Positions 28,001-49,073 of a stretch of 64,000 nt of DNA are shown one piece after another. The translations under genes and the position numbers were made by a program. The stretch comes from Macrostomum lignano (Eukaryota). Numbering within the stretch: the stretch's first letter is position 1; each line of letters starts with the position of its first letter. The notes under the pieces are model-generated. The model ran no database searches, had not been told where the DNA came from, and worked only from the letters and a program-made list of their open reading frames with translations. The stretch spans positions 62,001 to 126,000 of the forward strand of contig NIVC01002379.1 in NCBI GenBank assembly GCA_002269645.1, in the 5' to 3' direction.

Positions 28001-28218
28001 AAAACCACGATGCGTACGAGCCAGGTGTTCAAAAGTAGCCAGTGAAACTTTTGATCGCTGAGCAAAGACAAAAACACATACAGAGACAATTTTTCACACA
28101 TTTTGAAGAAAATCTGTTATTTCCAATGAAACTATTTGAATACAATTTTTACGAATTAATTCAAATATAAGGGATAGGGACACAACCCCATCAAACTGGG
28201 CCGCCGTCACTTGCTATC

Positions 28219-28565
28219 AGTAGTAGGTAAAAAGACGCTTCTAGACCCAGAACCCCTATTTAACATGCTGATTTGAAGGGCTAGTGGGGGGACACGAGGG
28301 GGTACTAAAAAAACACATCTAAATACCCTTTACCCCCCTTAAACACACTACCTCCCACTACCTCCCATTAACACCACCAACTCACACAAATCACACAATA
28401 TTCACCCATATTCCCAATAACACACCCTATCACAACCAAACAATCCCCTCGCGTCCCCCCATTAATAGCCCTTCAAATCATCATTTTCAATAGGTCTGAT
28501 CTAGAAGCGTCTTTTTACCTACTACTACTTTATAACCCCAGGCCGCGCCGCAGGCGCGTAGGGTC
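28219..28565 (+). repeat. Left TIR (347 bp) containing an internal inverted copy of the terminus
   Basis: Reverse complement of 48372-48718; no mismatch found on manual comparison. Confidence 0.95.
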
Positions 28566-28941
28566 AGGGGCTTGGGCACAAGAGTTTAAACTGAGTCATG
28601 GTATAGAAGCACTCAACAAAAAAATTACTCTCATAGCCACTATTGTTCATTTTATCACAGCGAAAGGCAGCAACACAACTGGCACAAACTGACTCACGCG
28701 CAGGGAGGTGCAGAAAATGCTACTTGTTGAGACGTGTTTTTCAATAAAAGCAGACTGTCTCACAGCCATCTACAGTATAAGAAGTAATTTGCTGTTTCTG
28801 CCATCTTGCAAAATCTTGCTGCAGCAGGAATTGAACGCCCACTCTACTTCAACTCTATAAAAACCACAACCATCAACCCCGCTCTTGCTCACCTCTTAGA
28901 AAATAAAAAAATATTTAGCATCCATTAAACATTAGCTAAAA

Positions 28942-29778
28942 ATGGCATCTTCCAGCGATAGAAAGCGCCCAAGTAAGATTGTAGCCTCCATTAAAAGTAT
29001 TAGCGCCAAAGATCAAGCTAGCTCAGCAGTTGCAATTAGCCGCATGCCTCCAGCGGAGCAGGACTTGCTGCTAAAGCAGCTAGTGAAGATTGAATCTGAG
29101 TCCGAAGAGCGAGAGAAGAAGGAGAAGAAGAAAGAGGCCACGGACAAAAGCCAGCGAGAAAGTCGGTTTATTGGTCGTCTCATTGAAAAAATGAGACAAG
29201 TTGAAAACGAGAGATATACCATCAAAACTCGGTAAGTTAAATTTTTTCGAATATTATCTCCCAATGAAAAACAATTTCAACAACTTAGTTAATTTCATTT
29301 TAGGTTCGACAACGCTAAGGAAGTGTGTACCACCGAAGTTGGCGCCATTGAAGCACAATTGATTAATCAATTTAATCACCTGGAAAGCTTCATCTCGAAC
29401 CTGGATGTCTTGGGGTGTTTTGCCCGCAAGAAACAAGCGGAGGTTGTTGTCACCATGCGTGAAAAGCTAGGTCTGAGAATCGATGCCATTTCGCAAAAAC
29501 TGGCGATTGACGTCAAGTTCACTCAGCGCCTATTTACTTTTTCGGCGCTTATTAGCGCATACCCCGCACTGGTAATTTCTGGGTATTCTTTTGAAACCCT
29601 GTTGACGTTCAAAAAGCCAATCGAGAAGCTGGCGACTGAAGATGAGAATTTCCGTTGCCTCATTGAGCGCCAAATCACCTACGATTTCGAAGGAGAGGAT
29701 GATGACACAATGCTTTTCGATGAAGACACAATTTCCGCTGCCACAAGTGAAATGGGGGCGTCCAGCATCAATGAATGA
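28942..29778 (+). CDS. Polinton hypothetical protein, spliced: exons 28942-29231 and 29304-29778, 254 aa
   Basis: A 72-nt GTAAGT...TTTCATTTTAG intron joins the 97-aa and 151-aa ORFs in frame (CG|G TTC GAC AAC...). TATAAAA upstream at about 28856 and AATAAA at 29834. Confidence 0.75.
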
Positions 29779-30068
29779 ATGAATTGTTGACAAATGTCCA
29801 GAAAAAATTCTGGATTTCCAAAAAACACATTGAAATAAAAGCTTCTTTTGTGCTCCAACGGAGCAGGCCATGGTGCCACTGGGCACAGCCCGCGAACCAT
29901 AGGTTCATTTTTGGATAGAGAATCTTTTGTGTTTGCGTCTTCTTTATTTTCTATACAAAAAAGAGTAAAAAAAGAGCTATAAAATAAAACCGCTCGAGAT
30001 GCTTGCACACTACCCTTTTCTTTAGTGTCTGCAACTTAATTTTTCTGTTACTAAAAATAGAACAAAAA

Positions 30069-30479
30069 ATGACACACGTTACACATATGCAAAATCTGAA
30101 CGAATTGCAGGTAGGAGACCCAGTTGAATACCGAGGTGAGGGTCTTTTTGATGTGGTTGGTACAGCAGCAAATTTCGTTAAAGACAATATGGGTCTTATA
30201 GGCCAAGCAGGCTCTGCAGCAGGTTCTATAACAAACGCTGTAAAGGGCGGAATCGAAGCAGCGAGGGCAGTAGAAGAACTAAAGAAATTGAGAGAATTTA
30301 ACGACACCCTCTCACAAATAAAAGCAATAAAAGATTTGAAACTAGCGCAGGAAACAACTCAAGCCGCACAACCAACAGAAACCCCCACGAAAAGCACACC
30401 AATAAGTAATAAAGATATTCAGGATTTTAATAAAATTTTAACCACAATTAAAGGTGGAAAAGGATTAAAGAAGTTTTAA
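30069..30479 (+). CDS. Polinton small putative virion core/membrane-active protein, 136 aa
   Basis: AAAAAATG start context; RGEG|LFD followed by an amphipathic Ala/Gly-rich helix; C-terminal GGKG|L. Confidence 0.7.
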   Translation: MTHVTHMQNLNELQVGDPVEYRGEGLFDVVGTAANFVKDNMGLIGQAGSAAGSITNAVKGGIEAARAVEELKKLREFNDTLSQIKAIKDLKLAQETTQAAQPTETPTKSTPISNKDIQDFNKILTTIKGGKGLKKF

Positions 30480-30489
30480 TAATATAAAA

Positions 30490-31449
30490 ATGGACACAGT
30501 TAATGACGAAAAACGGCTATATTTTATAGGAGAAATTGTAGATACTTTAAATCTAGACGATAATAAACATAGTCACGCAATGTTAAAAAGATTGGATCGC
30601 TTAGGCAAAAAATTTGACTACGACATCAATACATTTAAACTTGCTGCGAAATATGCACAAGAAGGAAGACCAATATCCTTTAAGAATCGCGGTAGAAACT
30701 ATAGGCTAACAGACTCCGATGTGAAATTTTTATTGGAGACTCACACTAAAAAGGACGGCGGGCTGTTACCTATTCTACCAATTCTTTTAGGACTTGGGGC
30801 AGCTGGAGCAGCTGGTTTAGCAGGAAAAAGAATTCATGATAACATAAAACAGTTAGGAGAATTAAAAGCAAAAGAAGGGGGTATATTACCCCTCGCAACT
30901 TTGCTCCCAATAATTTTTGCAGGAATTGGAGCAGCTGGAGGAGTCGCTGGAGGAGCGGCTGGAATTGCAAAAGCAGTAAATGACAAAAAAGCTGCGGATG
31001 AAAAAGCCAAAAGAGAGGCCGAATTTCAAAGACAGCAAATAACACAGGACGCACAATTCAAACAAAAACTTATAGATACAATTAATAGTAGCTCAACAAC
31101 AGCAGAACAAAAAAGAAATGCAGAAGCTAAATTAGCAGCTGGAAAAGGTTTAATTTTAAAAGGAACGACCCAAGGAAGCGGAGTTGTCGCAGATAAACTA
31201 TATGAGTTTGGGCAAACTTTAGAAAAAACGGGCGAGAAAGCTAAAGGATTTTTTGACAATATTGGAGCCAATTTTAGACCTGCGGTTCAGAAGATTTTTA
31301 ATAAGTTAGGAAAAGATTTTAACATAATCGAAAAACATGACGGAAGTGGTCTATATCTCGAAATGAGGCCAAAAGCAGGTTCAGGAATCTTCTTAAATGC
31401 AAACGTTATGGGCAGCGGATTACTGTTACCGAAAGCAAATCTCGAATAG
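30490..31449 (+). CDS. Polinton putative core protein with two adenovirus pX-like hydrophobic segments, 319 aa
   Basis: DGG|LLPILPILLGLGAAGAAG and EGG|ILPLATLLPIIFAGIGAAGGVAGGAAGIA, plus several GSG motifs. Confidence 0.75.
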   Translation: MDTVNDEKRLYFIGEIVDTLNLDDNKHSHAMLKRLDRLGKKFDYDINTFKLAAKYAQEGRPISFKNRGRNYRLTDSDVKFLLETHTKKDGGLLPILPILLGLGAAGAAGLAGKRIHDNIKQLGELKAKEGGILPLATLLPIIFAGIGAAGGVAGGAAGIAKAVNDKKAADEKAKREAEFQRQQITQDAQFKQKLIDTINSSSTTAEQKRNAEAKLAAGKGLILKGTTQGSGVVADKLYEFGQTLEKTGEKAKGFFDNIGANFRPAVQKIFNKLGKDFNIIEKHDGSGLYLEMRPKAGSGIFLNANVMGSGLLLPKANLE

Positions 31450-31535
31450 GGCTCCTGTGGGGAGGGTCAGGACGACTAAAACCTAAAATTAAAAAAACCA
31501 TTAATTCAAACATTGTATAAATTACATTCTATAAA

Positions 31536-34500
31536 ATGGAATCAATTTTAGCTCAAATCGACAACCCAGAACTTAGAGCGCAATTAATAGCTCAAATCGA
31601 AGCACAACGAATTGCCGATAGGGCTGAAATAGAAGCTAGAGTTAGAGCAGAAAATGAAATACGTTTAGAAAGACAATTAAATGATATTGATAATCCTCAA
31701 CAACAAAGACAAAATGTAGCTGAAGTAATAAATATAGATATTGATATAAATACTGATTATAAAGAATATTTTAAAAAAATGAAAGATAAATTAAAGATCA
31801 TATTAGATAATTATACTACGAAACCTAATAACAAACGACAGCCAATTAAGTATAAAATAGAAATTGAAACAGAATTTAAAAAACCAAGTATGATTAATGC
31901 AAATTCAGAAATTGAAGCAATAAATACCTTTTCACAAGAATCATATAAGACACTCCTATCAATGAGAAATTATGACAACCAATTTAATCAAATAGAAGCT
32001 GAGTTTGATGAATGGATAGATAAAATGACAGAAAACGGATCAGGATTCATTTTTGTATCTTGTAACTCAGTAATAGTAAAGATAGTTCCAATTGAAATTC
32101 TTAAAGGACGATCACACATGGATCCTGGATTTAAATCACCAATGATAATAAATCCTGATAATAAAGATGATAAGTGTTTATTATGGTGTTTATTAATTCA
32201 TAAGTATCACAAACAAGTAAAATCCCACACTAATAAAATATATAATTATAGACAATATGAGGATGAAATAATAATGAAAAACATATCATACCCAGTAGCT
32301 ATAGATGATATATATAAGATTGAAAAAATGAATGGGTTAAATATTAATGTGTTTACAATTGAAGAACCAGAAGATCTAGAAGAAATTAAAACTGATAAAG
32401 AATGGTATAAGAAAAGATGTTATTTAGTAAAGCCAGCAACAGATATAACAGCACCTGATCAAATCGACCTTTTGTACATACAGAATGAAAACAATACTCA
32501 TTATATATACATAAAGGACATTAATTCCTTTTTAAGAGAAAATAGAAATAGGATGTTATTATGTAGAAACTGTTTCACATTTAAAAAAACTGAAACAGCT
32601 CTTAAAAACCACCAAAGGTTTTGTTTGGATCACAAATTTACTAACGTTGTTATGCCCGATGAAAAAGAACAAATCCTAAAGTTCCAACAACATTATATGG
32701 CAATTAAAAAACCAATAGTAATATATGCTGATTTTGAAGCAACAAATGTTCCCTTAAAAGAACCGCCGACAGTATCTGATGGTGAATGTACAAAAAAATT
32801 AGCACAACAGTTCCCAAATAGTTATTGTATATATGTACACTCCGTAGCTGATAATATATTTAAATCAAGGATGTTTACTTACCATGGTAAGGATGCCGCA
32901 AAACACATGGCAGAAGAATTAGTAAATGTTTTTGAATTTATTCAAAATCAATATGATAAGTTATCAAAAAATATTAATATGACAGATAAGGATAAAGAAG
33001 ATTATAAAAATGCAACAAATTGTTTTATGTGTAAAAGGGCTATAAGTGGGAGATATAAGATACGAGAGCATTGCCATCTAACAGGAATTTATCGTGGGGC
33101 AGCATGTAAATCATGTAACGCAAAAGAAGGAAAAGGATGTAAGGAAATACCAGTATTTTTTCATAATGGTTCCGGATATGATTTTCATTTCTTAGTTAGA
33201 GAATTGCTTCATTTAGGTAGAGATGAATATGAAGTAAATATATTACCTAAAACATCAGAAAATTACATATCAATAACATATGGTAAAAAATACTCCCATC
33301 TAGTTTTTCTAGACTCCTTGAGGTTCTTATCAACCTCTTTAGCTAATGTAGTTTCATCATTAGTTCCAAAACCATGGGATTTAGAAATAGTAAAGAAAAA
33401 CTTTCCAATCTTATTGAATCGGTTCAAAAAGGAAAAACTATCCGAGGAAGAACTAATGCTATTAACTCGCAAGGGCATCTATCCATATGAATATGTAACA
33501 TCTGAAAAGGTATTTAATGATACTCAACTACCCCCAATTGATAAGTTTTACTCAATATTATCACAATCAAATATAACCGAATCGGATTATGAACACGCTC
33601 AAAAAGTATGGAAATATTTTAATTGTAAAACATTTAAAGATTATCATAACCTATACCTTAAAGCAGATGTTCTCCTATTAGCTGATGCGTTTGAAAACTT
33701 TAGGAATCATACATATGAGAATTTTAAAATTGATCCAGCATATTGTTTCAGTGCACCAGGATTAACATGGGCATGTGGTTTGAAATATACAGATGTTGAG
33801 ATTGATTTACTAACTGATCATGATATGTTGTTAATGATTGAGAGAGGAATTCGAGGAGGATTCTCAGGGGTACTAGGAGATAGATATACTAAAGTAAATA
33901 ATAAATATCTACCAAATTATAATAAAAAAGAAAAATCATCATATGTATTATATCTAGATGCAAACAATTTATATGGTGGGTGTATGAAACAAAAATTACC
34001 AATAGCTGATTTCCAATGGGAAGACGATCCAGATTATTACAAAAACATTCCCGAAGGAAGGGGATGTATCGTAGAAGTGGATTTGCAATATACTCGGGAA
34101 GCAAAAGCAAAAACATATAAATATCCCCTAGCTCCAGAGCATTGTTCAGTTAATGAAGACGATTTATCACAAACACAAAAAGATTACCTCAAAGCGGATA
34201 ATACAAAACATCTAGCAACAAAAAAGTTAATATTAAATTTACATGATAAGAAAAACTATGTAGTGCATTATAAGCTTCTACATTTTTATGAAAAGCAGGG
34301 ACTAAAAGTTACAAAAGTACATCGAACAATATCGTTTATTGAGGAAGAGTGGTTAGCTAAATATATCGACTTTAATTCAAATCAGAGACAGTTGTCAAAA
34401 ACAAATTTTGAGAAAGATTATTGGAAATTAATGAATAATGCTTTTTATGGAAAAACGGTTGAAAATATTAGAGATAGAACCCAATTCCATTTAGAAAAGG

Positions 34501-35498
34501 ATATTGATAAAGCAAAGAAATATTTCTCAAAACCTAATTTTAAAGACTTTATAAAATTTGATGATAAGTTTATGGGAATTCATATGAGAAATAAAACAAC
34601 AAAATTTCTTAAACCAATCTTTATTGGAATGGTAGTTTTAGATTTTGCAAAGCTGGTAATGTATGAATATTATTATGATGTTATAAATAAAACTTGGCCA
34701 GATAACTATCCAATATATGCAGACACCGATAGTTTGGTATTTAAGGTTGAAACTCCGGATGTCTATAAAGACATGGAAACAATTCAGGATACATTGGATA
34801 CATCCGACTATCCTGATAACCATCCCTTAAAATCAAATAAAAATAAGAAAGTTGTACTTAAAATGAAAGATGAATTAAATAGCAAAATCATAACCGAGTT
34901 TATAGCAATAAGATCAAAATGCTATGCATTTAAGGTTTTAGGACAGGAGGGAGAGGTAAAAAAAATAAAAGGGGTATCAAGAGCAGCAGTAAAAAAGATA
35001 ACATTTGATGATTATAAAAACGTACTTTTAGATTATCTTAATACAATTGAAAATTACCATGCTCCACAATATCGATTAAATTCAGATAAGCATCAAATGT
35101 ATGTCATCGAGACAGATAAAAAAACATTAAATCCTTATGATGATAAAAGGTATTTAGATAATATAATTAAAACATATCCATATGGTTTAAAAGAAGAAAT
35201 TAAAAACATGCAAAATGATAAAAAACAAAAAGAGGATATAATAAATAAATATAAAGAATACATTGAGTCAATAAATAATTATTATTATGATTGTGATTGT
35301 GAATCCGATTGCGAATGCGAATATAATAAATTTTTAGAATATGAAAAAGATATTGATAAATATTATGAAACATTTCCAAAAGAACTTAAAAAAATAAATA
35401 AGGACAAAGCATTGGATAACTGGAAGAGACTAACAGAAGGATTACTTAAGCTACATACTGATCGGGTCTGTAAAAAACTAAAGCATGTAATTGTTTAA
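31536..35498 (+). CDS. polB: Protein-primed family B DNA polymerase (pPolB), 1320 aa
   Basis: Exonuclease motifs YADFEA and FHNGSGYDFHF; polymerase motifs YLDANNLYG, KLMNNAFYGK and YADTDS; uninterrupted ORF. Confidence 0.97.
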   Translation: MESILAQIDNPELRAQLIAQIEAQRIADRAEIEARVRAENEIRLERQLNDIDNPQQQRQNVAEVINIDIDINTDYKEYFKKMKDKLKIILDNYTTKPNNKRQPIKYKIEIETEFKKPSMINANSEIEAINTFSQESYKTLLSMRNYDNQFNQIEAEFDEWIDKMTENGSGFIFVSCNSVIVKIVPIEILKGRSHMDPGFKSPMIINPDNKDDKCLLWCLLIHKYHKQVKSHTNKIYNYRQYEDEIIMKNISYPVAIDDIYKIEKMNGLNINVFTIEEPEDLEEIKTDKEWYKKRCYLVKPATDITAPDQIDLLYIQNENNTHYIYIKDINSFLRENRNRMLLCRNCFTFKKTETALKNHQRFCLDHKFTNVVMPDEKEQILKFQQHYMAIKKPIVIYADFEATNVPLKEPPTVSDGECTKKLAQQFPNSYCIYVHSVADNIFKSRMFTYHGKDAAKHMAEELVNVFEFIQNQYDKLSKNINMTDKDKEDYKNATNCFMCKRAISGRYKIREHCHLTGIYRGAACKSCNAKEGKGCKEIPVFFHNGSGYDFHFLVRELLHLGRDEYEVNILPKTSENYISITYGKKYSHLVFLDSLRFLSTSLANVVSSLVPKPWDLEIVKKNFPILLNRFKKEKLSEEELMLLTRKGIYPYEYVTSEKVFNDTQLPPIDKFYSILSQSNITESDYEHAQKVWKYFNCKTFKDYHNLYLKADVLLLADAFENFRNHTYENFKIDPAYCFSAPGLTWACGLKYTDVEIDLLTDHDMLLMIERGIRGGFSGVLGDRYTKVNNKYLPNYNKKEKSSYVLYLDANNLYGGCMKQKLPIADFQWEDDPDYYKNIPEGRGCIVEVDLQYTREAKAKTYKYPLAPEHCSVNEDDLSQTQKDYLKADNTKHLATKKLILNLHDKKNYVVHYKLLHFYEKQGLKVTKVHRTISFIEEEWLAKYIDFNSNQRQLSKTNFEKDYWKLMNNAFYGKTVENIRDRTQFHLEKDIDKAKKYFSKPNFKDFIKFDDKFMGIHMRNKTTKFLKPIFIGMVVLDFAKLVMYEYYYDVINKTWPDNYPIYADTDSLVFKVETPDVYKDMETIQDTLDTSDYPDNHPLKSNKNKKVVLKMKDELNSKIITEFIAIRSKCYAFKVLGQEGEVKKIKGVSRAAVKKITFDDYKNVLLDYLNTIENYHAPQYRLNSDKHQMYVIETDKKTLNPYDDKRYLDNIIKTYPYGLKEEIKNMQNDKKQKEDIINKYKEYIESINNYYYDCDCESDCECEYNKFLEYEKDIDKYYETFPKELKKINKDKALDNWKRLTEGLLKLHTDRVCKKLKHVIV

Positions 35499-35805
35499 GC
35501 ATAATATCCATTTCAATTTCATATTTTATTGAGCACCAATTTTCCTCACAGTCAGTGGGGTAACTTAAACATTCTTTTACTTTTTTCCTAAGTATTTTTA
35601 TTCGTCTAACCAATCTATCTATTTCAATTTCAATTACTGTTTCAGCATAAGCAATTGCAGATTTAATAAAACGTTTTCTTTTATCTAAATCATATCGGAT
35701 AGGAAACATATCTTCATCATAATCACTATAAAATAAACTATTTAATTTTTTATTAATATAATTAAGTTCACGCTCTTTAGTGATAAGGATTTTTATTGTC
35801 TCCAT
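35446..35805 (-). CDS. Polinton hypothetical protein, 119 aa
   Basis: TATAAGAAAATG start context; converges on and overlaps the pPolB end; no recognised domain. Confidence 0.55.
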   Translation of the reverse strand: METIKILITKERELNYINKKLNSLFYSDYDEDMFPIRYDLDKRKRFIKSAIAYAETVIEIEIDRLVRRIKILRKKVKECLSYPTDCEENWCSIKYEIEMDIMLKQLHALVFYRPDQYVA

Positions 35806-35965
35806 TTTCTTATAAAAAATTTAAACTTATTCGGGGTCATCCTCCCAAACCGAAGCCAATTTTACAGTCCTATCACTCTTTTTATTTTTTGCTTGTTTTA
35901 GTTTAAATTGCAACCCACCCTCCATACTGTATTTCCATTTTTAATCTAAAAAAATAACAAAAAAA

Positions 35966-37983
35966 ATGAAAGACATTTACGAATGTAAAAAATGTAATGT
36001 GCGCATGCATAGAGGGCAAACAGCAAACGGAGATATACGGGCCGACTTGGGGCCTCTCGCCTAGAACGGTCCGTTGGATTTATACCGGCATCATCCGGCC
36101 CAGTATCACATACGCGAGTCTCATCTGGACTAGCGTGCTGGAGCAGAAGGCCGCCCGTCAGCGGCTGTACCAGCTTCAGGGCAGCATTTGCCGTGCCATC
36201 ACAGGTGCGTACCCGTCCACCCCTTACGAGGGGCTGAACACTATCCTTAACCTACCTCCGCTTCACCTATTTATTAGGGCGGAGGCTATGAAGTCTGCCT
36301 CCCGGCTTATCAGAGATAAAACGTTAAATAACGCGCCCTCTGGCTTTATGCCAATGAAAACATTAATCCCGCATATGGACTTTGTCCGCCGCGACCTTAA
36401 CAACATCCACATGGACCTGGGCAATGTGGATAGTCGACCTCCCGCCCTCAACATCAGGAGGGGCTTCAAGACCGCCATCCCTGGCCGAGACAACATTCCG
36501 CTGGATGTCGGTGTGAACCGGCGCAGCCAGGGCATTCACTGCTTCACCGACGGCTCGCTGTTCAACGGCCGCGCTGGAGCGGGTATTGCCATTTTCCACG
36601 AGGGTAAGATGCTTCTCCAGGAAAGTCTGCACCTCGGTGAGAACACCTCAGTTTTCCAAGCTGAAATTTGCGCCATTGAGCAGTGTGCCCAGCAACTATT
36701 TCAGGCGAACATTAATAATTTTGACATTAATTTCTACACTGATAGCCAAGCTGCTATTAAGGCCTTAACCACTGAGAATATCTCCGCTGCTACAGTATCT
36801 CAATGCCACCGCAGTGTGCAATCTCTCTCAGTCCTTAACAGGATTAGAATTATCTGGACACCTGGTCACAGCAACATCCTGGGCAACGAGCTCGCGGACT
36901 CTCTCGCCAAGGAGGGCAGCAACCCAGACGGCAACCACCGTCTGATGAGGCTACCCACCCCCAGGTCGCAAGTCACCCGCCATATCAACAGGTGGCTCCA
37001 TCAGCAGCACCAGCTCCACTGGAACAGCTGCACCGAGTACAGGCAGAGCCGCTCTGCCATGCCTAACCTGAACAGGAAAGTCTCTGATTATCTGATTTCG
37101 CTTAACAGAACCGACCTCAGGGAGATGTGCATGGTCCTAACCGGCCACGGATTCTTCCAGAGACATATATCGTTGCAAACCGGTTGCCCTCCCACCTGTC
37201 CCTTCTGTGGCATAGGAGAGGAGACCGCGGAGCATCACGTCACCTTCTGCCCTTACTTCAACAAGGCGCGGCACAAATACCTCGGCCACCCCCAGCGGAT
37301 GGACGAGCTGACCACCGCGGACAATATCCGAGACCTCCGCGCCTTCGTCCGGGACTCCGGCCGGATGAGGGTCGCCGATGCCTCCACTGCGGACCTGCCG
37401 ACTACTGGCGGGGACTGGGCGCACCCCCAAGGCTAATCCTTGTGCTCTTTTACCTTGGGGTTGCGATAGGGGCCTCGCGGCCTATTCGCGGCGCCTGCGC
37501 CCCCCGTCAGTAGTAAGTAGTAAGTAAGTAAACGGAGATATATATCATATGTGTTATTCATGTTCTAAAATATATCAATTTGAAAAAATAAAAAAGATTG
37601 AAAATTCATATTACTATTTTAAAAACACAATTTTAAGAAATCTTACAAGAGACATTTCCGATCCAATTTTAATTCCGGGAAATAATGTTTATTTATATAA
37701 TAACTTTTTCCATTTAAATAAAGGAAAGGGATTAAGTTCGAAAGACTCCGAAAGGATTTTAATTTTAGTTGGATATTATTTTAATTTTCTTATGCGAGAG
37801 AATACAAAGTTTATAAGGATTGGTAACATACCTAACGAAATGTTATTGAAAAAGTCATTAGAATTTTTATGTATTGATAAAAAATTTAAACCTAGGATTA
37901 CAAGAGAGTTACCACTTTGGGAAGAATATATAACGTATGCATTAAATAAACTAAACAACCTGAAGTTCTACAGTACTTCCTGA
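35966..37983 (+). pseudogene. Polinton zinc-ribbon gene (170 aa when restored) interrupted by a LINE
   Basis: Removing 36038-37542 restores [33 protein letters not shown]... (CxxC-x17-CxxC) at an exact codon boundary. Confidence 0.85.
36038..37529 (+). mobile_element. 5'-truncated non-LTR retrotransposon with RNase H (LOA/Lian/R1-like), 1492 bp
   Basis: 13-bp TSD AAACGGAGATATA (36025-36037 and 37530-37542); WGLSP...[18 protein letters not shown]-terminus; RNase H motifs FTDGS / AE / TDS / GNELAD; CCHC knuckle; (TAAG)-like tail; GC-rich relative to the Polinton. Confidence 0.92.
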
Positions 37984-38604
37984 CCGCGGACTTTGTAACC
38001 CGGTAGCAATAGTTTCCGGTTTGTATTCAATAGTTTCTATCGGAGGAGCTTTGGGTTTGTCCAAACGCAATTCCTTCAATTCCATATCGGTAAAAGTTTC
38101 AACATCCAAAATTCTATTTCTATCTTTTAAATATTTTTCATATAACTCAACCGCGGTTGATAATTCATGAATAGTTATCTCTCCGTCATCCAATATTTTT
38201 TGCACATATAAATATAATTGATTTTTATATTGTTTTGCAACATCTCTTAAAGATTTATATTTTTCCTTTCTTTTTTTAAGATATAATTTAATTGCTAAAA
38301 GTATTGATAAGTTCCTGATCAATTCAAAACCTGATATTGAGCCAATTGAAATACCTAAAAATAATTGAGATAAATTAAGAGTTGGAAATGATTGTAAAAC
38401 ACCTAAAACAATTACACATAACATCGATAAGCTTCCAAATCCAATATTGAAAAAATCCATATTTCTGATATGATTTGAAATTCTTCTCACTTTTTTAGTA
38501 TATAAATCATAATCATAATTTATTCGATCAACATTACTCAACATGTGACCCTTGCGTTGGTTAAAATGATCACGTTCCCTTTTATCTGCTTCAGACACCG
38601 ACAT
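37951..38604 (-). CDS. Polinton two-transmembrane-helix protein, 217 aa
   Basis: Two hydrophobic segments followed by a basic helix and ILDDGEITIHE; located in the minus-strand structural gene cluster. Confidence 0.75.
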   Translation of the reverse strand: MSVSEADKRERDHFNQRKGHMLSNVDRINYDYDLYTKKVRRISNHIRNMDFFNIGFGSLSMLCVIVLGVLQSFPTLNLSQLFLGISIGSISGFELIRNLSILLAIKLYLKKRKEKYKSLRDVAKQYKNQLYLYVQKILDDGEITIHELSTAVELYEKYLKDRNRILDVETFTDMELKELRLDKPKAPPIETIEYKPETIATGLQSPRSGSTVELQVV

Positions 38605-38917
38605 TTTCGTCTATTTTTAATAGCACCAAAATGAATTCCCCGCGCTCTTTGGGGATCTGCCCCGAGCTCAATAGGTATTGTATCAGACTTATTCTTTCTT
38701 TTTTCTCCCATTTAAATCCTATTTTCCAAAACTCTTGAAGTATAATATGATTTTTTAATAACTTAATTAATTCTTGAAGCTTCTTATTATCCTGAACATT
38801 TACAGTACTAAATAAAAATTTGGTATGAGATTTGAATGTTTTTATATTTGATTCTTGTTTAGGAATAGGAATAATAACATTATTTTGCCGCATCGATGGA
38901 GTTCTACTAAAAGCCAT
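38591..38917 (-). CDS. Polinton hypothetical protein, 108 aa
   Basis: TATATAAAATG start; N-terminus MAFSRTPS resembles that of the adjacent fibre-like gene. Confidence 0.65.
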   Translation of the reverse strand: MAFSRTPSMRQNNVIIPIPKQESNIKTFKSHTKFLFSTVNVQDNKKLQELIKLLKNHIILQEFWKIGFKWEKKERISLIQYLLSSGQIPKERGEFILVLLKIDENVGV

Positions 38918-38960
38918 TTTATATAGAAATATTTAAGTTATCGCCCCGTAGGGTCGCACC

Positions 38961-41006
38961 TTAGGTGATTTGAGTTTGTGGCTGTTCCAAATATGCGCTC
39001 GCAGCAAAATCATATCCTGCTGATGTGCTACCACAAACGGCTGCACCACGAATAAAATGTGCAGCATCCGATCCTCCGGTTCGAGCACCAAAACCCATAA
39101 GTGTTCCCGTTTTATCTAAATCTCCCCAAGTTCCGCTATCATATGTAAAAAAGTTTTGCCCAATTAACGTATACACTTTAGTTGAAACATTGAATGTGCT
39201 TATTTGATACCAAACTCTTTGATTAAGAATATTAATTTCAAAAAAGTGCCAATCACCATTATCAATATTAGCATAGGTTATAGTTTGATCTGCGTCATTA
39301 AGAACATCATTACGAACCGTAGCTCCGTCTGATTTTACATTACTCCATAGAACTCCAACTCTGTCATGCCATTCACTAGCAAACACTATCAAACCCGCGT
39401 TGGTTGTTAATCCAGATCCAAATTCCGTTGTTGGACGTTGGTGACAGTATGCATAAAACCAAACAGCGTCAGCACCATCTCCTGTAGTATTAGCAACTCG
39501 GAAATAGAAGGAGGCGGATATATTACGAAAATGGGTGAAATTAAATTGTAACGCTCCAGACCGACCCGATGCTTCATCAGTAATTCTAGCACCATTTTGA
39601 TAATCTATATAAGAAGCATCTCCAACAAAACTTCCTGTTGGAAAAATATCGCCGGCGGTGGTTGGGTTTTGATACCCAGTCCAATTGCAAATTACGGGCT
39701 CGTACAAAGCGGCATCAATTGCAGGTATTCCATCCAATTTTATTTTATCATTAAAAGACATTCGGCCATCCGCCGTTGGTGTTACTCGCGTGTCAACATA
39801 ACCTTTAGTAACAACAGAACTGTTATCGTTTATATTAGAGACATTGGTGATCGTATTGGAACCCATATCAATTGATTGATTAACTACTCCCAGATTTAAA
39901 TCAATAATTGTAAAAGTCTGCCTATAAATCTGAAAGGTTGACAGGCCGGGGTTTGTAGCACCCGAAGTTGATGTAAGACAGAACAATCTGAAATATGAAT
40001 ATGTTTTATCAAAATTTTGTGTGACATTAATTGTTTGAGTTGAGTTATTTATTTCTACAGAACTATCCGCAGGTATTAAAACATCCCAGCTCGTATTGTC
40101 ATTACTTCCTTCAAATCGCCATGATGCTGGATGCTCGGTTGATGGCGACGGTCTTCCACGTAAATCAATTTTATAACACATTATTGCAGATGGACATTGA
40201 ACCTGAATCCAATAATCGGTTTGTGTATTATTGGTCGCCCAATCTGTTGCATTATCTCCATCAAAAGCTTTCCAGCTTGCAAAATCGGTTGTATTAAATG
40301 CTGTGCTGGCTGTAATTGCAAAACCATTTCCACTCCAATCTGACATAGTAGGTATGTGGCCGGTTTCAACCGTTTGGAATCGATCCTGTTTTGGTGTTCC
40401 ACCTCCAACTATATTATCAACTTCGGTTTTGGTATAAGAATCAGCAACATTCCGTTTCAAATTTAATGAATTATCAACTTCGGTTTTGGTATAGGAATCG
40501 GCTATGTTCCGTTTCAAATTTAATGAATTATCGACTTCGGTTTTGGTATAAGAATCGGTTATGTTCCGTTTCAAATTTAATGAATTATCGACTTCGGTTT
40601 TGGTATAAGAATCAGATATATCTCTTTTCAAATTTAATGAATTATCAACCTCTGTTTTGGTATAAGAATCAGATATATCTCTTTTTAAATTTAGGGAATT
40701 ATCGACTTCTGTTTTGGTATAAGAATCAGATATATCTCTTTTTAAATTTAATGAATTATCAACTTCGGTTTTGGTATAGGAATCGGCTACGTTCCGTTTC
40801 AGATTTAGTGAATCATCGATTTGAGTTTTAGTATAGGAATCTGCAACGTTTCTTTTTAAATTTAATTTATTATCAATTTCAGTTTTTTTATAACCTTCAT
40901 CCTCATTAATATATCGATTATCTCCGAATGTAACACTGATGCCACCAGATGTGCCACCACCAGTACTTGTTGTTCCGTTCCATGAGGGTGTTCCAGAAAA
41001 TAACAT
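38961..41006 (-). CDS. Fibre/receptor-binding-like protein, 681 aa: 8 x 19-aa repeats, a discoidin (F5/8C)-like domain and a ConA/legume-lectin-like domain
   Basis: YTKTEVDNSLNLKRxxxDS repeats; WKAFDG...WIQVQ...WRFEGSND...YSYFRL; VVTKGYVD fibre-type motif; C-terminal GADAVWF...WHFFEI...GFGARTGG. Domain calls are by eye. Confidence 0.75.
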   Translation of the reverse strand: MLFSGTPSWNGTTSTGGGTSGGISVTFGDNRYINEDEGYKKTEIDNKLNLKRNVADSYTKTQIDDSLNLKRNVADSYTKTEVDNSLNLKRDISDSYTKTEVDNSLNLKRDISDSYTKTEVDNSLNLKRDISDSYTKTEVDNSLNLKRNITDSYTKTEVDNSLNLKRNIADSYTKTEVDNSLNLKRNVADSYTKTEVDNIVGGGTPKQDRFQTVETGHIPTMSDWSGNGFAITASTAFNTTDFASWKAFDGDNATDWATNNTQTDYWIQVQCPSAIMCYKIDLRGRPSPSTEHPASWRFEGSNDNTSWDVLIPADSSVEINNSTQTINVTQNFDKTYSYFRLFCLTSTSGATNPGLSTFQIYRQTFTIIDLNLGVVNQSIDMGSNTITNVSNINDNSSVVTKGYVDTRVTPTADGRMSFNDKIKLDGIPAIDAALYEPVICNWTGYQNPTTAGDIFPTGSFVGDASYIDYQNGARITDEASGRSGALQFNFTHFRNISASFYFRVANTTGDGADAVWFYAYCHQRPTTEFGSGLTTNAGLIVFASEWHDRVGVLWSNVKSDGATVRNDVLNDADQTITYANIDNGDWHFFEINILNQRVWYQISTFNVSTKVYTLIGQNFFTYDSGTWGDLDKTGTLMGFGARTGGSDAAHFIRGAAVCGSTSAGYDFAASAYLEQPQTQIT

Positions 41007-41016
41007 TTTTTACTGT

Positions 41017-41490
41017 CTATTTTATAGAATCTAAAATAGCCCTAAAGTCTTCGGGTCTTTCCTTCGAGTTATTAATTTTATATAAAAAATATAACGCCGC
41101 TTGCCCGCAATAACTTTTATCAAATGTTTGAAATTGTTCGTGATGATCTCCACATAAACGATTTTTAGTATGATTAAATTTATCTTTTATTTCCTGTAAC
41201 GGAGGAAGCGCGTATGAATCAAAAAAATAAACAAGTTTAGGTTTTGAATAAACTGCTGACCAATGAACACCGTTTTCTTTTGTTGTTTCAATATTAACAA
41301 TGTAAGATCCATATCTTGGTAAGTCTTTTATCTCATCCCGCATAACACATCTAAATGGTTTTATTTTTAACTGCCGCGCCCAATTTGTTAATTCGATATT
41401 GCTTGTTGTGTCTGTTCCATATCTTTGTTTGAACCCGCCCCACGTTAGTGATGGCGAGGACTCTGTCCGTCTGTCCCAACTCATAGTCAT
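41017..41490 (-). CDS. Adenain-like (C5/Ulp1-fold) cysteine protease, 157 aa
   Basis: GVHW, FFDSY, Q and YCG catalytic arrangement typical of Polinton proteases. Confidence 0.9.
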   Translation of the reverse strand: MTMSWDRRTESSPSLTWGGFKQRYGTDTTSNIELTNWARQLKIKPFRCVMRDEIKDLPRYGSYIVNIETTKENGVHWSAVYSKPKLVYFFDSYALPPLQEIKDKFNHTKNRLCGDHHEQFQTFDKSYCGQAALYFLYKINNSKERPEDFRAILDSIK

Positions 41491-41491
41491 T

Positions 41492-41665
41492 TTATGTTCC
41501 TGAAAAACTTTTGGTTTTAGTTAGTTTAGTAGGTGTGGGTTTTAACAGCTCCTTTCTTATTTTATCTGCTTGTAACTGTCTTAATTTTGTTAGTTCTAGT
41601 TCATAATTATCTTCAGCTTTTTTAACTTTTTCCGTTTGTTTTTTTAACGCATTGTTGTTACCCAT
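41492..41665 (-). CDS. Small ORF below the track cutoff, 57 aa (MGNNNALKKQTEKVKK...KSFSGT)
   Basis: Fills the gap between the penton and protease genes; has the TAAAAATG start context; its stop codon abuts the protease start context. Confidence 0.65.
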   Translation of the reverse strand: MGNNNALKKQTEKVKKAEDNYELELTKLRQLQADKIRKELLKPTPTKLTKTKSFSGT

Positions 41666-41675
41666 TTTTACTATA

Positions 41676-42461
41676 TTAAACCTGTTTTATACGTAAAATT
41701 ACTGTTATTGATTGACCACCAAAACTTATTAATCTATCGCTTTCATCTACGATCCTAATATAAATTGATTGAACGCTATATTGATTTAAAGGATAATATA
41801 TTGGGGTTTGGGGTGCAACAATCATTTTCTCTCCAATTGGAACAGCAAGAAACGGGATTGAATAAATAATTCCACGTTGAACCAAAACCCCATTATTATC
41901 TGTTATATAACCGCCGTTTGATATGTCGGTTGTTATATTAATTGTATTGACTCCGCCCTCAATGTTTCCCACGGTATCACCGGTGCTTGATGCGGTAACT
42001 ATTCGGGAATTAAATCCAAGTATGGTTCTGAGTGAGTTTGCAATTGTGAAATCAACCTGATATCCTGATCCTAGTGATAGGGTGAATCTTCCCGACGGTA
42101 AATCAACACCTATAACAATCGCACCAGCTACCCAATCACCATTATCCGTTAATTCTCCTTCTATGTAAGCATTCAAATCGGTATAGCTATACGCCCCTGG
42201 ATTAACGCTAAAAGTTGTCCAATTGGCTCCGGAATCTTTAGAATATCTAAATTGATTATTTGTTGCATTAATTAATTGAGGCATGTTAAAAACCGAAAAT
42301 AGTATCAAACCTATTTGATAACTTAGGCTTTGATCTAGTTGTAACGGATCGCGCAATTGAATCCGTTGCTCGCTGCTTGTCATTATAAACTGTAAGGTTG
42401 TGCTAAATTTTGAATTAGTTCGATCTACCAATTGTTTTATAGTGTCTAAATTTGTTGCCAT
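41676..42461 (-). CDS. Minor capsid (penton) protein, 261 aa from MATNLD
   Basis: Beta-rich sequence with YQIGL, NNQFRY, PGAYS..DLN and IYSIP...P...YYPL...I.IRIVDE patterns; lies between ATPase and protease; TATAAAAATG start. Confidence 0.82.
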   Translation of the reverse strand: MATNLDTIKQLVDRTNSKFSTTLQFIMTSSEQRIQLRDPLQLDQSLSYQIGLILFSVFNMPQLINATNNQFRYSKDSGANWTTFSVNPGAYSYTDLNAYIEGELTDNGDWVAGAIVIGVDLPSGRFTLSLGSGYQVDFTIANSLRTILGFNSRIVTASSTGDTVGNIEGGVNTINITTDISNGGYITDNNGVLVQRGIIYSIPFLAVPIGEKMIVAPQTPIYYPLNQYSVQSIYIRIVDESDRLISFGGQSITVILRIKQV

Positions 42462-42515
42462 TTTTATAGTGGGGAATAATAGCATCGGCGGCAAGAGAAC
42501 CAAAGATTTGAGATT

Positions 42516-43277
42516 TTACTCCTCGTCCTCATTATCTTCTTTTATCAAATTTGTTAAGATTCGATTTCTTCTTTCTAACCTAGGGTTGACATATATGTGT
42601 TTGTATTGACTATCATCCCAAATTTTTTTACACATACTTTTAAATGGTTTTGTATCCAACCCCGGATTAAATCTAGCGTGTATATTTTGTAAATCATAGT
42701 CATCTAAATCAAACATTACACAACAGCTAGCATTCTTTTTTATAATCGATTCTAATTCTCTAAAGGATTGAGTAAGATAAAAAGCTCCAATTCCATCTCC
42801 TCTACCACTAACAAAAATTTCTTTTTGCAATTCTTGATCTCCGTCATTAATACAATCGTCAAAAATAATTAGTGTTTTATCATATTTAGGAATTTTGTCA
42901 TAAGTTAATCTGTTTGATATTGTAATTGTTGGAGAATTGTTGTCTATATTTTCTGGATCTTCTGCCGTTTTTTTACATAAATCCTCAATGTCTGTTAGTT
43001 TAAATCTTGGTTCATCATCGTCCTCATATTGCTCATATGCTCTTAACATTCTAAATAAGATATCTTTTTTTAATTTGTTTTTTAATCCGTGTTTAAGAAA
43101 TTCATAATATTTTATTCTAGGTTTGTTAGTATAAATTATTAAATTATTATAGTCTAACATTCCATCGGTTGTTAACAAGTCATAAACAAAGTGGGTTTTT
43201 CCTTTGCCCGATCCACCAATTACTAAACAAAGAAAAGGATCATTTGGAAATATTTTATAATGTTTTGCTTTTACCAT
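42516..43277 (-). CDS. A32/FtsK-like genome packaging ATPase, 253 aa
   Basis: Walker A GGSGKGKT, Walker B LIIFDD, and R...IGAFYLTQ. Confidence 0.93.
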   Translation of the reverse strand: MVKAKHYKIFPNDPFLCLVIGGSGKGKTHFVYDLLTTDGMLDYNNLIIYTNKPRIKYYEFLKHGLKNKLKKDILFRMLRAYEQYEDDDEPRFKLTDIEDLCKKTAEDPENIDNNSPTITISNRLTYDKIPKYDKTLIIFDDCINDGDQELQKEIFVSGRGDGIGAFYLTQSFRELESIIKKNASCCVMFDLDDYDLQNIHARFNPGLDTKPFKSMCKKIWDDSQYKHIYVNPRLERRNRILTNLIKEDNEDEE

Positions 43278-43297
43278 TTTTTAAGTAAATAATTTAA

Positions 43298-44779
43298 CTA
43301 ATCTTTATCTACGGGCGCATCCCGAACAACGGTTCCGTCGGCTTTAGCAATTGATATATATTCCTCTAGAAACAATACGTGGGCGTCTAGTGCCTGATTA
43401 CCGGTTTTATTAATCTCTAACATATAATTCAAACCAACATTGGCTACATTTTCTTTCTGTGCAGTTAGATCAAAAACAACTACTGGGTGAATGTTTAGAA
43501 ACTCCGTGGGTGTGTACTGAGGAACAGCATACGCTTCATTTTTGGTATAATCTTGATAATATTTTATAAAATCATTAACATTATTATTTGCTATGTTTAG
43601 ATTTAAGGGCTCTTTAACAGGATAATATTGATCATCAACCTGCAGGCGGATATTCTGAACATTAAACTCGTTAATAGCTGAAACCGCGTTGTCGGTTGCA
43701 GTGGCTGCCTGAGCTGCTACATCCTCTGATTGAAGCCAATATAAATCCCCGTTTGCTCTTTTACTCCTTCTATTTGTTATTTTAAACCAAACAAAAATAT
43801 ATCTCACCCGACGTTTTGATATCGTTATCTGCCACTGAAATGAATCCTGATTGTTGTTAATGGTTCGCATAAAGTGGCGCCGATTCAAATAAAATATTTC
43901 TTGATCAACCATTATCTGCTTATTAACATGTGCTAAAAGAGGCGCCGTTAGCTCTAGTTTTGGTACGACTAATTGAATTGATGCTATACGAATTGCGATA
44001 TCGGTTGAAATTGAGGTTCCATAAAGTATCCTAGGCTGATATCCACCAGATATTTGCAACTGTACCCCAAATTTTAATCCTTTCCATACCCGATTTGGTG
44101 AGAAGAACCCAAATAGTGGAAAGATTGAAAAGTCTTGCTCATATGCGCTTGCTGTGGTTAAAACCGCTACTGGGAATTTATTCTGACGATCTATAAAACC
44201 GGTATTAATATCTTTTGTGTTAGTCATGGTGGTTACAACTGGAACTATATTGGTATTAAGATAAGCTATAAGGGCTGCGGTATCTGCGCCGGCTGCATTT
44301 TGTACATTAGGGAAAACTACTGCTTGTCCATTACCCTTATCAGGCATCCACCCAACACTATCACCAACTTGTTTTGATAAATAAGTATAATTTAAATGTT
44401 TCAAAACTCCATTAATCTCTGCTGGGTTTGTTGATGTCTCAACCTCGGCTCCATTAACAGTTAGTTGAGCTTGGGAAAAACATTTATAAAACCAATCATT
44501 TTCTATAATAATTCCAGAACGATCTGGGATATCACCGGCTGCAAGAGCAGTTCCATCGTTTCTGGTATACAACCATCTAACGCGGAAAAACGCGTTTTTC
44601 ATATCTAAAACGCTGTCGCTTGCCCCAACGTCAAAAGTTACCGTTCCCGTAGTAAAATTGTTTGAATTATCACTTGTTGGTAGGGTATAATTTAAATCTC
44701 TTGCCCTGATCTCATTAATATACTGCCGGTGCTTTTTAAAATGAAATTTATCACTCCATATGGTTTTTGTTTCAGCCAT
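43298..44779 (-). CDS. Major capsid protein (double jelly-roll), 493 aa
   Basis: Size, beta-rich composition, position next to the ATPase, and Polinton-MCP-like patterns (FSQAQLTVNGAEVE; C-terminal VVFDLT). Confidence 0.85.
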   Translation of the reverse strand: MAETKTIWSDKFHFKKHRQYINEIRARDLNYTLPTSDNSNNFTTGTVTFDVGASDSVLDMKNAFFRVRWLYTRNDGTALAAGDIPDRSGIIIENDWFYKCFSQAQLTVNGAEVETSTNPAEINGVLKHLNYTYLSKQVGDSVGWMPDKGNGQAVVFPNVQNAAGADTAALIAYLNTNIVPVVTTMTNTKDINTGFIDRQNKFPVAVLTTASAYEQDFSIFPLFGFFSPNRVWKGLKFGVQLQISGGYQPRILYGTSISTDIAIRIASIQLVVPKLELTAPLLAHVNKQIMVDQEIFYLNRRHFMRTINNNQDSFQWQITISKRRVRYIFVWFKITNRRSKRANGDLYWLQSEDVAAQAATATDNAVSAINEFNVQNIRLQVDDQYYPVKEPLNLNIANNNVNDFIKYYQDYTKNEAYAVPQYTPTEFLNIHPVVVFDLTAQKENVANVGLNYMLEINKTGNQALDAHVLFLEEYISIAKADGTVVRDAPVDKD

Positions 44780-44813
44780 TTTTTTAAGTTAAAAAAGTTT
44801 TTTATGTTAAAAA

Positions 44814-45482
44814 ATGAGTCAATTTATGGACGTTGATGGAGAGTTAGCAATTTATAAAGAAAAGCAAAAATATTCTGATTTTGTTAGAAATTTACAAAAA
44901 AGAAAGTTAGGAATACAACTCGCTGGCGAAAGATTTGCTGCCCCTTTTGTTAATCCTATTACGGGCAAACTTAGTGAACTAGAAAAAACAGATAAAGACC
45001 TTCTTGAAAAAATTGCTAAGAATACCGAGCCAAAAGAGGATGAAATTTTAGATGAGCCGCCTACTTATGATGTTGATCAAGTGCTATTGAGACTTGCAGA
45101 GATTAGGCGTGCAGAAAGGGATGGAGTTGAACAATTTACGAATGTCCCACGAAGCATTGCAATAGAGGAGTTAGATAATGATAATTACCGAATTGGTCGA
45201 GTTAATAAAAATCGAAATGATTTATATAGAGAATTGGGCGGAGCATATAGAATTATTACTAACCCTAGGGTTAAGTTTAACCCTGATTTTTATACTAGGG
45301 ATGAATTAGTAAGTGCTAAAATTTTTTATGATGATTTAGGAGTAGGAGCTGTTAAAAATACCAACTTGTATAAAAGGATTGTTGATTCTATAAATAACAA
45401 GCCGGCTGTTGGTGAAGGATTTAAAACTCCGCGAAAACTTGTTTTAGCTGCCGCGAAAGCTGCTGGACATACGGGTGTTTAA
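44814..45482 (+). CDS. Polinton conserved-type hypothetical protein, 222 aa
   Basis: Transcribed divergently from the MCP gene; C-terminal VGEG|F...AAGHT motif; AAAAAATG start. Confidence 0.7.
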   Translation: MSQFMDVDGELAIYKEKQKYSDFVRNLQKRKLGIQLAGERFAAPFVNPITGKLSELEKTDKDLLEKIAKNTEPKEDEILDEPPTYDVDQVLLRLAEIRRAERDGVEQFTNVPRSIAIEELDNDNYRIGRVNKNRNDLYRELGGAYRIITNPRVKFNPDFYTRDELVSAKIFYDDLGVGAVKNTNLYKRIVDSINNKPAVGEGFKTPRKLVLAAAKAAGHTGV

Positions 45483-45503
45483 TTAAATTTATTTTTTATA
45501 AAA

Positions 45504-46012
45504 ATGGATAATACGATAAATGAATGTCTTTGTAAACCTATTTATGATAAGGTAGGTTCTGACAGAATACTAAATAAGATATTTCAAGATGATTTAATAA
45601 TTGCAAACCGTATTAAAACAATTCAAATGAGGCTAGGATATCTTTATGAATTATTAGCTATTGAACATTTTGGTTTTGAAAAAATTAAGAAAATTGATTT
45701 AATTCATACTGAAAGAAAAATTGCGTTAGAGTTAAAATCTTCTGATAACACAGATAATTCATCGAGTCGATTTAGAAATATTCAAAAGTTATTAGAATTT
45801 AAAAATGTTAATCCTGAATTTGAGTTATATTATATTTGCATTAATAATACTACTAAAGCCCCCCCGTACAAAAGGTATTTGATAATGGAGTTACATTGTT
45901 AACTGGGGATTTTGCTTTAAATTTTTTATATGGTGATCAATATTTGGAAATTACTAAACTGATAGAAACGTGTTTTTTAAAGATTAAAAATGAGCAATCA
46001 ATTAGTGTTTGA
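45504..46012 (+). CDS. PD-(D/E)xK restriction-endonuclease-like protein; 169 aa if one C is added to the C7 run at 45859-45865
   Basis: GYLYE...IDL...ALELKSSDNTDNSSS resembles Eco47II-type nucleases. The -1 frame continues 48 codons (VQKVFDNGVTLLTGDFALNFLYGDQY...) to TGA at 46010. Confidence 0.6.
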
Positions 46013-47585: not shown

Positions 47586-47802
47586 GGCAACAAGGTAGTA
47601 AATTTTTTATAACAAATAAAAACAATATTATTACTATTATAGTTACTAATATTATTATTGACATTTGTTCAACAGTTATCAAACTTAAATTATCATTAAG
47701 TTCATTAATTGGCACATTTCCGATATAGGAATAATTTACCTTCATTTTTTTAAATATATTTTTAACAATAATTGTTGTTTCTGTTACAGAATAATAGTTC
47801 AT
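47578..47802 (-). CDS. Small single-TM protein, 74 aa
   Basis: Hydrophobic IIILVTIIVIILFLFVI segment; TTAAAAAATG start. Confidence 0.6.
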   Translation of the reverse strand: MNYYSVTETTIIVKNIFKKMKVNYSYIGNVPINELNDNLSLITVEQMSIIILVTIIVIILFLFVIKNLLPCCLK

Positions 47803-47805
47803 TTT

Positions 47806-48036: not shown

Positions 48037-48039
48037 TTT

Positions 48040-48354: not shown

Positions 48355-48371
48355 TTTTAGTAACAGAAAAA

Positions 48372-48718: not shown

Positions 48719-48813
48719 GCTATCATATTTATGTCATTCCGCGCCTTTCTTCTTTCAATTGTACAACTCATGATAATGTCAGTCACAAAATCCACAGAAG
48801 ATGACGCAAGTGA

Positions 48814-49073
<260 letters not shown>

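Follow-up and report, generated by a model that had tools for sequence, protein, structure and literature searches.

Why should a transposable element carry, inside each of its terminal inverted repeats (TIRs), a second and inverted copy of its own tip? The question is raised by a 20,500-bp element in the 64-kb stretch of DNA analysed here (the window). This element is a Polinton/Maverick, as it combines TIRs and a 6-bp target duplication with integrase, polymerase, ATPase and capsid protein (Table 1). Its size and the length of its TIRs lie within the Polinton range (13–25 kb, with TIRs of 100–1500 bp), and the two end features that Polinton criteria ask for, the 6-bp target duplication and the (AGT)2 tips, are both present, such tips being described for Polintons in the available part of PMC8097293. 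Among the Polintons/Mavericks (adintoviruses), the HNH-bearing pPolB2 class is alike in size, TIRs, 6-bp duplication, integrase, ATPase and capsid protein, and the window element shares with it an HNH-type insert in the polymerase, which the accessible text of bioRxiv 10.1101/2023.08.22.554363 assigns to one Polinton polymerase class, pPolB2. The two TIRs agree at every one of their 347 positions (95% upper bound of divergence, 0.9%) and are flanked by GCTATC on both sides, which indicates a young insertion.

Table 1. Coordinates of the Polinton and of its parts in the window.
Feature	Position	Strand	Remarks
Whole Polinton/Maverick, 20,500 bp	28219..48718	.	TIRs, target duplication, core genes
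Left target-site duplication GCTATC	28213..28218	.	same 6 nt at 48719-48724
Right target-site duplication GCTATC	48719..48724	.	
Left TIR, 347 bp	28219..28565	+	347/347 identical to right TIR
Outer arm: terminus (AGT)2AG and ~76 nt	28219..28302	+	
Loop, 143 nt, unstructured on both strands	28303..28445	+	
Inner inverted copy of the terminus, extra AGT unit 28527-28529	28446..28529	-	
TIR tail, 36 nt: TTATAA, then GC hairpin, 6-bp core stem and GCA loop (28544-28558)	28530..28565	+	
Right TIR, mirror image	48372..48718	-	tail 48372-48407, inner arm 48408-48491, C-free loop 48492-48634, outer arm 48635-48718
pPolB polymerase, 1320 aa	31536..35498	+	polymerase motifs read by eye; homologs, some with PF03175
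Endonuclease VII / HNH-type motif in polymerase, aa 496-528	33021..33119	+	Pfam PF02945 E 5e-7
Nested retrotransposon-like fragment, GC-rich, RNase H ORF, short tandem-repeat tail	36038..37529	+	13-bp target duplication 36025-36037, 37530-37542
Probable maturation protease	41017..41490	-	His-Asp-Gln-Cys order read by eye; no Pfam match
Packaging ATPase	42516..43277	-	Pfam Pox_A32 E 6.3e-7
Major capsid protein (MCP), double jelly-roll type	43298..44779	-	model pLDDT 83; best Foldseek match mavirus MCP, E 6.5e-15
Retroviral-like (rve) integrase	46593..47585	+	Pfam PF00665 E 4.8e-8; 1142 homologs

Each TIR has the layout of a fold-back. The original prediction, made from the letters of the window, held that the first ~85 bp recur inverted near 28444–28529 with one extra AGT unit, and this is the case: the outer arm (28219–28302) and the reverse complement of 28443–28526 are identical in 73 of 88 columns, including the first 27 nt without exception, the other 15 columns being mismatched or gapped, and the inner arm is one AGT unit longer. 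The stretch from 28303 to 28450 is likewise free of G as claimed (0 in 148 nt; A58 C61 T29), with a chance of ~3e-13 at the G content of the element. The last G of the outer arm directly precedes this tract, which runs on into the inner arm; the unpaired loop is therefore not 148 but 143 nt long, the last five G-free bases belonging to the inner arm. On the strand bearing the 3' terminus the loop has the composition C0 G57 T58 A28, and it contains a 12-nt direct repeat at 28346 and 28356. A GC hairpin with a GCA loop is indeed present, but the length of 36 once given to it in bp is that of the whole tail in nt, the core stem being 6 bp. The mirrored structure noted at 48372–48718 proved to be the right TIR, and the two TIRs of the window have the same polarity. 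A complete terminus stands at each end of the 311-nt unit, the two facing as in a small Polinton, and the 6 nt past the end of the inner arm differ from the target duplication.

The polymerase of the window element has no Pfam match to PF03175. A structural model of its residues 60–620, searched with Foldseek, matched Y-family polymerases (probability 0.99, E 0.014) and an OTU domain (probability 0.47), with OTUD3 among the matches and none at E ≤ 0.001; these model-based matches seem to fit the layout of a terminal protein (TP, LF/PAD-derived) and a vOTU domain in the available portion of PMC11071308. One Cys and one His are conserved and form a candidate vOTU pair. The endonuclease VII motif is intact, where the His/His/Asn residues are invariant in 81/81 aligned rows, and by the strict pattern the motif is found in 45 of the 81 rows of the polymerase group; among solved structures the sole sequence match of this domain was the restriction nuclease Hpy99I (E 1.1). 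The provisional assignment of the protease is based on the His-Asp-Gln-Cys order, which we take to be the motif of a maturation protease. No Rep/NS1 HUH nickase was matched by Pfam in the 19 ORFs scanned, and seven of the larger ORFs of the element had no match of any kind. Named homologs of the element proteins are few (mussel, spiders, wasps, aphid); together with flanks rich in microsatellites they suggest that the host is an animal.

Several further features of the locus were recorded. The retrotransposon-like fragment inserted in the Polinton seems to break an ORF. A 681-aa ORF (38961–41006, minus strand) contains tandem repeats of 19 aa along with an F5/8 type C (carbohydrate-binding) domain and is a possible fibre or attachment protein, while a 132-aa ORF (45504–45902, plus strand) has a sub-threshold match to the Eco47II restriction endonuclease family (E 1.4e-4) and is a possible second nuclease. 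A 24-nt motif (23/24 identical) occurs at 30040–30063 (+) and 48349–48371 (-), just ahead of the start codons of ORF 30069 and ORF 48354–48040, and is likely a promoter or 5' leader motif; the latter ORF starts directly inside the right TIR. An A-run precedes the ATG in most genes of the element. The host flanks (1–25000 and 48813–49073) are dense in micro- and minisatellites with periods of 4 to 49 nt, and a GATA-type array follows ~95 nt beyond the element on its right side.

By computation, folding of the 311-nt unit yields -67.4 kcal/mol, where 100 dinucleotide shuffles give -16.6 ± 3.2 kcal/mol (lowest -26.0), and the loop alone gives 0.0 kcal/mol on one strand and -0.3 kcal/mol on the other; the tail hairpin, including its weaker outer stem, reaches -8.8/-10.2 kcal/mol. 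On either strand the base of the computed stem (-76/-79 kcal/mol) falls exactly at the tip of the element, and on the strand with the 3' end the terminal OH is base-paired but recessed, the inner copy reaching three bases beyond it. As computed, the 3' terminus can turn back as a primer, which is a feature of parvovirus-type rolling hairpins. The proposed pairing of the 3' end on the inner copy is supported by geometry and energetics, full rolling-hairpin replication being conjectural. Pairing of the TIRs from end to end (-464 kcal/mol) is far stabler than two local folds, so local folding would need a kinetic advantage. As to the G-quadruplex proposed as a check, a strict element was rejected, as no motif of four G3+ runs with loops up to 12 nt occurs in the TIR and the gquad mode of ViennaRNA returned none; the G4Hunter-type score peaks at 1.6, in the loop, and a non-canonical quadruplex is thus possible. 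Two sub-threshold chance matches were obtained from Rfam, both outside the TIR.

Sibling copies were sought in public sequencing runs of the organism of the window; 24 such runs exist in the form of contigs, and 20 of them contain the stretch or part of it. Four of the runs were aligned to 28100–29299 at 85% likeness; the joints and loose ends considered are those listed, a part of the whole, and the contigs omit rare forms and break at the shared 27-nt block. The inner copy is kept in the sibling subfamilies seen: four of the six listed joints, one per run (28302>28436, 28302>28498, 28323>28492 and 28251>28495), link a piece of the outer arm to a piece of the inner arm over a middle that does not align, which argues that siblings keep the fold-back with a different loop. 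The sibling loops no longer align to the window loop at 85%, and the listed loose ends within them are G-free in all three cases (before 28436 in X1 and X2, behind 28330 in X7). In the window copy, TGATTTGAAGGG is found in both arms; sibling loose ends before 28281 show CCGTTTTAAGGGT on the outer side, and those before 28492, on the inner side, show a motif complementary to the outer-side change, which suggests that the two arms change together, both changes likely lying on one element. The substitution T28530C was seen at high depth in 8, 7 and 2 contigs (X1, X2 and X7, respectively) that run from the inner copy on into the tail, pointing to an inner copy with extra AGT that is multi-copy. 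In the depth bins that cover the outer and the inner tip, the value summed over contigs is in each case ~100x that of the flank; both tips are hence present in many siblings.

In three runs, the depth of contigs identical to the loop is 1.7–2.6 times that of interior contigs, near the value of 2 predicted by two TIRs, depth not being equal to copy number. An X11 contig of 539 nt covers loop, inner arm and interior with no differences and in the orientation of the window. From loose ends behind 28528, one sibling inner copy appears one base shorter, and the 3' half of the GC hairpin of the tail is present in one sibling loose end; loose ends past the inner copy are alike between two runs, unlike random flanks. 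Judged from these contigs, the fold-back structure is retained among siblings. The two other forms that had been proposed, a 311-bp unit that inverts in flip-flop manner and one that occurs solo as a mini-element, were not encountered: none of the six listed joints changes strand, in contigs that may lose rare forms, and no solo unit lies within the 64-kb window. Beyond 28528–28529, a G-free, C/A-rich tract of ~34–124 nt replaces the TTATAA tail in some siblings (loose ends in X1, X2 and X11), and 159 nt at 28646–28804 are replaced by five letters in a sibling subfamily ~4–6x deeper than the window copy in all four runs.

For other Polintons, loci were taken from alignment-based integrase and polymerase profile scans of viral contigs (14 loci, the best 80 of 463, and 27), a single-protein integrase scan of the viral contigs having given no match. 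Few of 120 fetched loci have a true element end. The 19-nt tip had no exact match in the viral contig set, and the TIR had no blastn match in 126 fetched loci. Fold-back screens covered 448 end-motif sites (94 loci and the window element) and 315 sites (26 loci), at a background of 3 passes in 3000 random positions. The sites that passed were the window element, L079, L075, L090 and one AT-rich palindrome (L009, the same as L109), which was dropped because it is internal rather than terminal. Among 30 contig ends examined (one counted twice), a plausible terminus with flank was found only in L079; in L112, L103, L099, L105 and L109 the end motif sits in apparent genes or spacers, and these were rejected as termini. 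Most contig ends of relatives have no fold-back, few of them being true termini.

L079 is a distant Polinton of the other polymerase class (PF03175, protease, PC4, integrase), in which ACTACT follows the last gene and is preceded by a 150-nt fold-back (15330–15485; -49/-51 kcal/mol). This fold-back probably lies at the element terminus, the other end and the target duplication being missing from the locus. Its inner copy is without AGTAGT, so the last 6 nt are unpaired and the stem starts at nt 7; its loop is structured and not G-free, the fold-back has a short, stable-looking tip loop, and its polymerase gave no endonuclease VII match. On the strength of this end, fold-back ends appear to occur outside the family of the window element. 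L075 (1930–2044) and L090 (911–1025) contain related 115-nt near-perfect hairpins, both fully paired and identical at 94/115 positions in opposite orientation, with (AC)3A-like ends and paired changes. The hairpin is terminal in L075 but lies between divergent polymerase and PLA2/integrase genes in L090, for which reason both were excluded as termini; a terminus, a misjoin, a MITE or the junction of a circle or concatemer are all conceivable. Two Polinton-like viral contigs (L112, 11572–11934; L113, 5705–6067) contain 24-nt GC-rich palindromes in arrays, with more single copies in L112, and a 525-nt self-inverted stretch (84% identity) lies at a contig end in L007 (3844–4368), an apparent inverted duplication of the polymerase 3' end.

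Polinton replication has been modelled as protein priming on an end-to-end racket structure (as cited in PMC4196379, available part), and the Polintons of the literature, in the text available, are described with no inverted inner tip copy around a G-free loop such as the window element has. The closest precedent is a preprint on Halocafeteria virophages and PLVs, whose accessible text proposes hairpin priming from ~52-nt terminal palindromes (bioRxiv 10.64898/2026.07.28.741278). These palindromes share with the window element their position inside the TIR beside the target duplication, but they come from a screen that allows gaps of up to 10 nt and would miss a 143-nt loop, and they belong mostly to non-pPolB elements, in contrast to 84-nt arms in a pPolB element. 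No comparable architecture is found in the available text of 10.1101/2022.07.28.501842, PMC12721341, 10.64898/2026.10.13.758929, PMC11296320 and PMC8502044. Within the full-text literature covered, that preprint is the one close precedent; Repbase reports, subscription journals and the supplements of the preprint lie outside this scope and may mention the architecture.

Streptomyces telomeres are protein-capped, and their first 13 nt fold onto an inner palindrome, the 3' end being extended in vitro (PMC4513846, in the part available). The 3' strand of the window TIR likewise folds its tip onto an inner complementary copy. According to the same portion of that source, the Streptomyces hairpins are closed by G:A pairs and the self-primed extension in vitro is a side product; these telomeres differ further in being bacterial, with an internal origin, end patching by Tap/Tpg, tightly packed short palindromes and no integrase. 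In the ITRs of parvoviruses and AAV the 3' end folds back as a primer, a Rep nickase is needed, and flip and flop ends result (PMC11575299, available part). The window element differs from these in having no Rep match among the ORFs scanned, no flipped joint among the six listed and a large unstructured loop. Some parvovirus ends do keep one orientation. In the phi29 system, DNA priming works well from a 3'-recessed end, which serves poorly as a terminal-protein origin, and origins with a 5' overhang are weak for protein priming (PMC4150772, as available), a behaviour that fits self-priming.

The reading that we favour, at a probability of roughly 45%, is that the fold-back is a maintained cis-element which makes the single-stranded DNA terminus self-priming and self-templating, beside ordinary protein priming. 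Self-priming by such a fold is plausible, and it is favoured by the recessed and paired 3' OH of the computed structure together with the primer behaviour of phi29 ends and the extension of Streptomyces telomeres. The retention of both arms among siblings with different loops, G-free where seen, the suggested joint change of the arms and the fold-back of L079 also speak for it. By its base make-up the loop shuts out competing folds. Folded single strands would arise at excision or strand displacement, and a DNA polymerase would then extend the recessed 3' end. Were this extension short, it would rebuild or mend the tip, as with the extra AGT in the case that the integrase trims the free genome ahead of joining. 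Retroviral-type integrases trim 2–3 nt before joining, so the integrated tip could be one AGT shorter than the free tip. A long extension would start second-strand synthesis without the parental terminal protein that an excised copy would lack; the hairpin end thus formed would have to be nicked, and the endonuclease VII domain of the polymerase is a candidate for this. The C-free, G/T-rich loop on the 3' strand may be selected, or it may be the footprint of cytosine deamination on an exposed single strand. Some findings stand against this reading. The flip and flop ends predicted by an AAV-type resolution are missing from the listed joints, and the unpaired last 6 nt of L079 could neither prime nor be restored from the inner copy. 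The contigs, to which the analysis is confined, show no replication intermediate, hairpin end or dimer, and the sibling inner copy that appears one base shorter and the far greater stability of end-to-end TIR pairing count against the reading as well. The endonuclease motif is common in the polymerase group and hence need not be tied to fold-backs, and the signs of protein priming (the AGT repeat and the TP/vOTU-like domains) remain, so self-priming may be dispensable. A fully combined scheme, in which lytic rounds are protein-primed, the fold-back lets a fresh TP-free excised copy prime itself and rebuild the trimmed AGT from the inner copy, the endonuclease VII domain opens the hairpin ends and the G/T-rich 3' loop serves as a telomere-like single-stranded cap, is rather doubtful as a whole.

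The fold might instead be a cruciform excision signal, extruded from both strands, in which a four-way junction at the border of host and element is cut by the endonuclease VII domain or the integrase and the element is released with nicked hairpin ends. T4 endonuclease VII resolves four-way junctions, and the intact motif in the polymerase, the coincidence of the stem base with nt 1, the equal folding of both strands and a loop unstructured on both agree with this; but extrusion from duplex would probably be costly with a 143-nt loop and 15 imperfect columns in the arms, the domain has Hpy99I as its sole match among solved structures, and L079 has a fold-back that starts at nt 7 without such a domain. 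We regard this explanation as unlikely, and to the same degree the one in which the inner copy dates from a template switch that placed a copy of the tip further inward and is now a relic, homogenised by occasional hairpin-mediated conversion and with no selected role. A relic would account for the imperfect arms and, by way of conversion, for the joint change of the two arms as well as selection does, and the absence of fold-backs from most relative contig ends, few of which are true termini, points the same way. It sits poorly with an inner copy that persists in high-depth siblings whose loops have diverged beyond 85% alignment, with the G-free composition of the sibling loops seen and of a zone bounded by the stem at both ends, and with the separate fold-back of an unrelated end, L079.

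Folding would be incidental if the arms were duplicated protein-binding sites in duplex DNA, for integrase, polymerase-TP or host transcription factors, and if the loop with TTATAA were a promoter or enhancer for genes inside the TIRs. The confinement of perfect identity to the first 27 nt, a plausible footprint, speaks for such sites, as do TTATAA placed inward of the inner copy, the motif common to the region upstream of ORF 30069 that directly follows the right TIR together with an ATG at 48354, and CACCC and CCTCCC boxes in the loop. Left unexplained are the lack of any G over 143 nt bounded by the stem and the turnover of loop sequence at constant composition, and we hold this account to be distinctly unlikely. 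A local panhandle, in which the fold rebuilds a duplex origin for TP priming on a displaced strand with no pairing of ends over 20 kb, has behind it the model commonly applied to displaced strands, as yet unproven (PMC11886824, available part), the preference of phi29 for duplex over single-stranded origins (PMC4150772, likewise) and the TP/vOTU-like domains that seem present in the modelled polymerase; it is nevertheless quite improbable, as folding leaves the window element with a recessed 3' end and a long 5' extension, and L079 with a 6-nt 3' overhang, both of which are weak or inactive phi29 origins in the accessible text of PMC4150772. Inversion of the 311-bp unit in flip-flop manner, or its movement as a mini-element bounded by AGTAG ends of its own, is very improbable, for, despite a full terminus at both of its ends in the orientation of a small Polinton, the joints, the loop depth, the mutually alike sibling ends past the inner copy, the 6 nt beyond its inner end and the lack of a solo copy in the window all speak against it.

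For the restart of protein-primed replication after a Polinton has been excised, the racket and panhandle models are proposals (PMC4196379, PMC11886824, in the parts available). A retained fold-back of exact geometry makes definite predictions: ends that snap back, a tip that in its free form exceeds the integrated one by three bases, and a substrate on which the polymerase's endonuclease domain could act. Even as a relic, the fold-back would be of use as a marker, one that escapes palindrome screens limited to short gaps. If true, self-priming would link the ends of Polintons to the logic of parvoviruses and Streptomyces telomeres.
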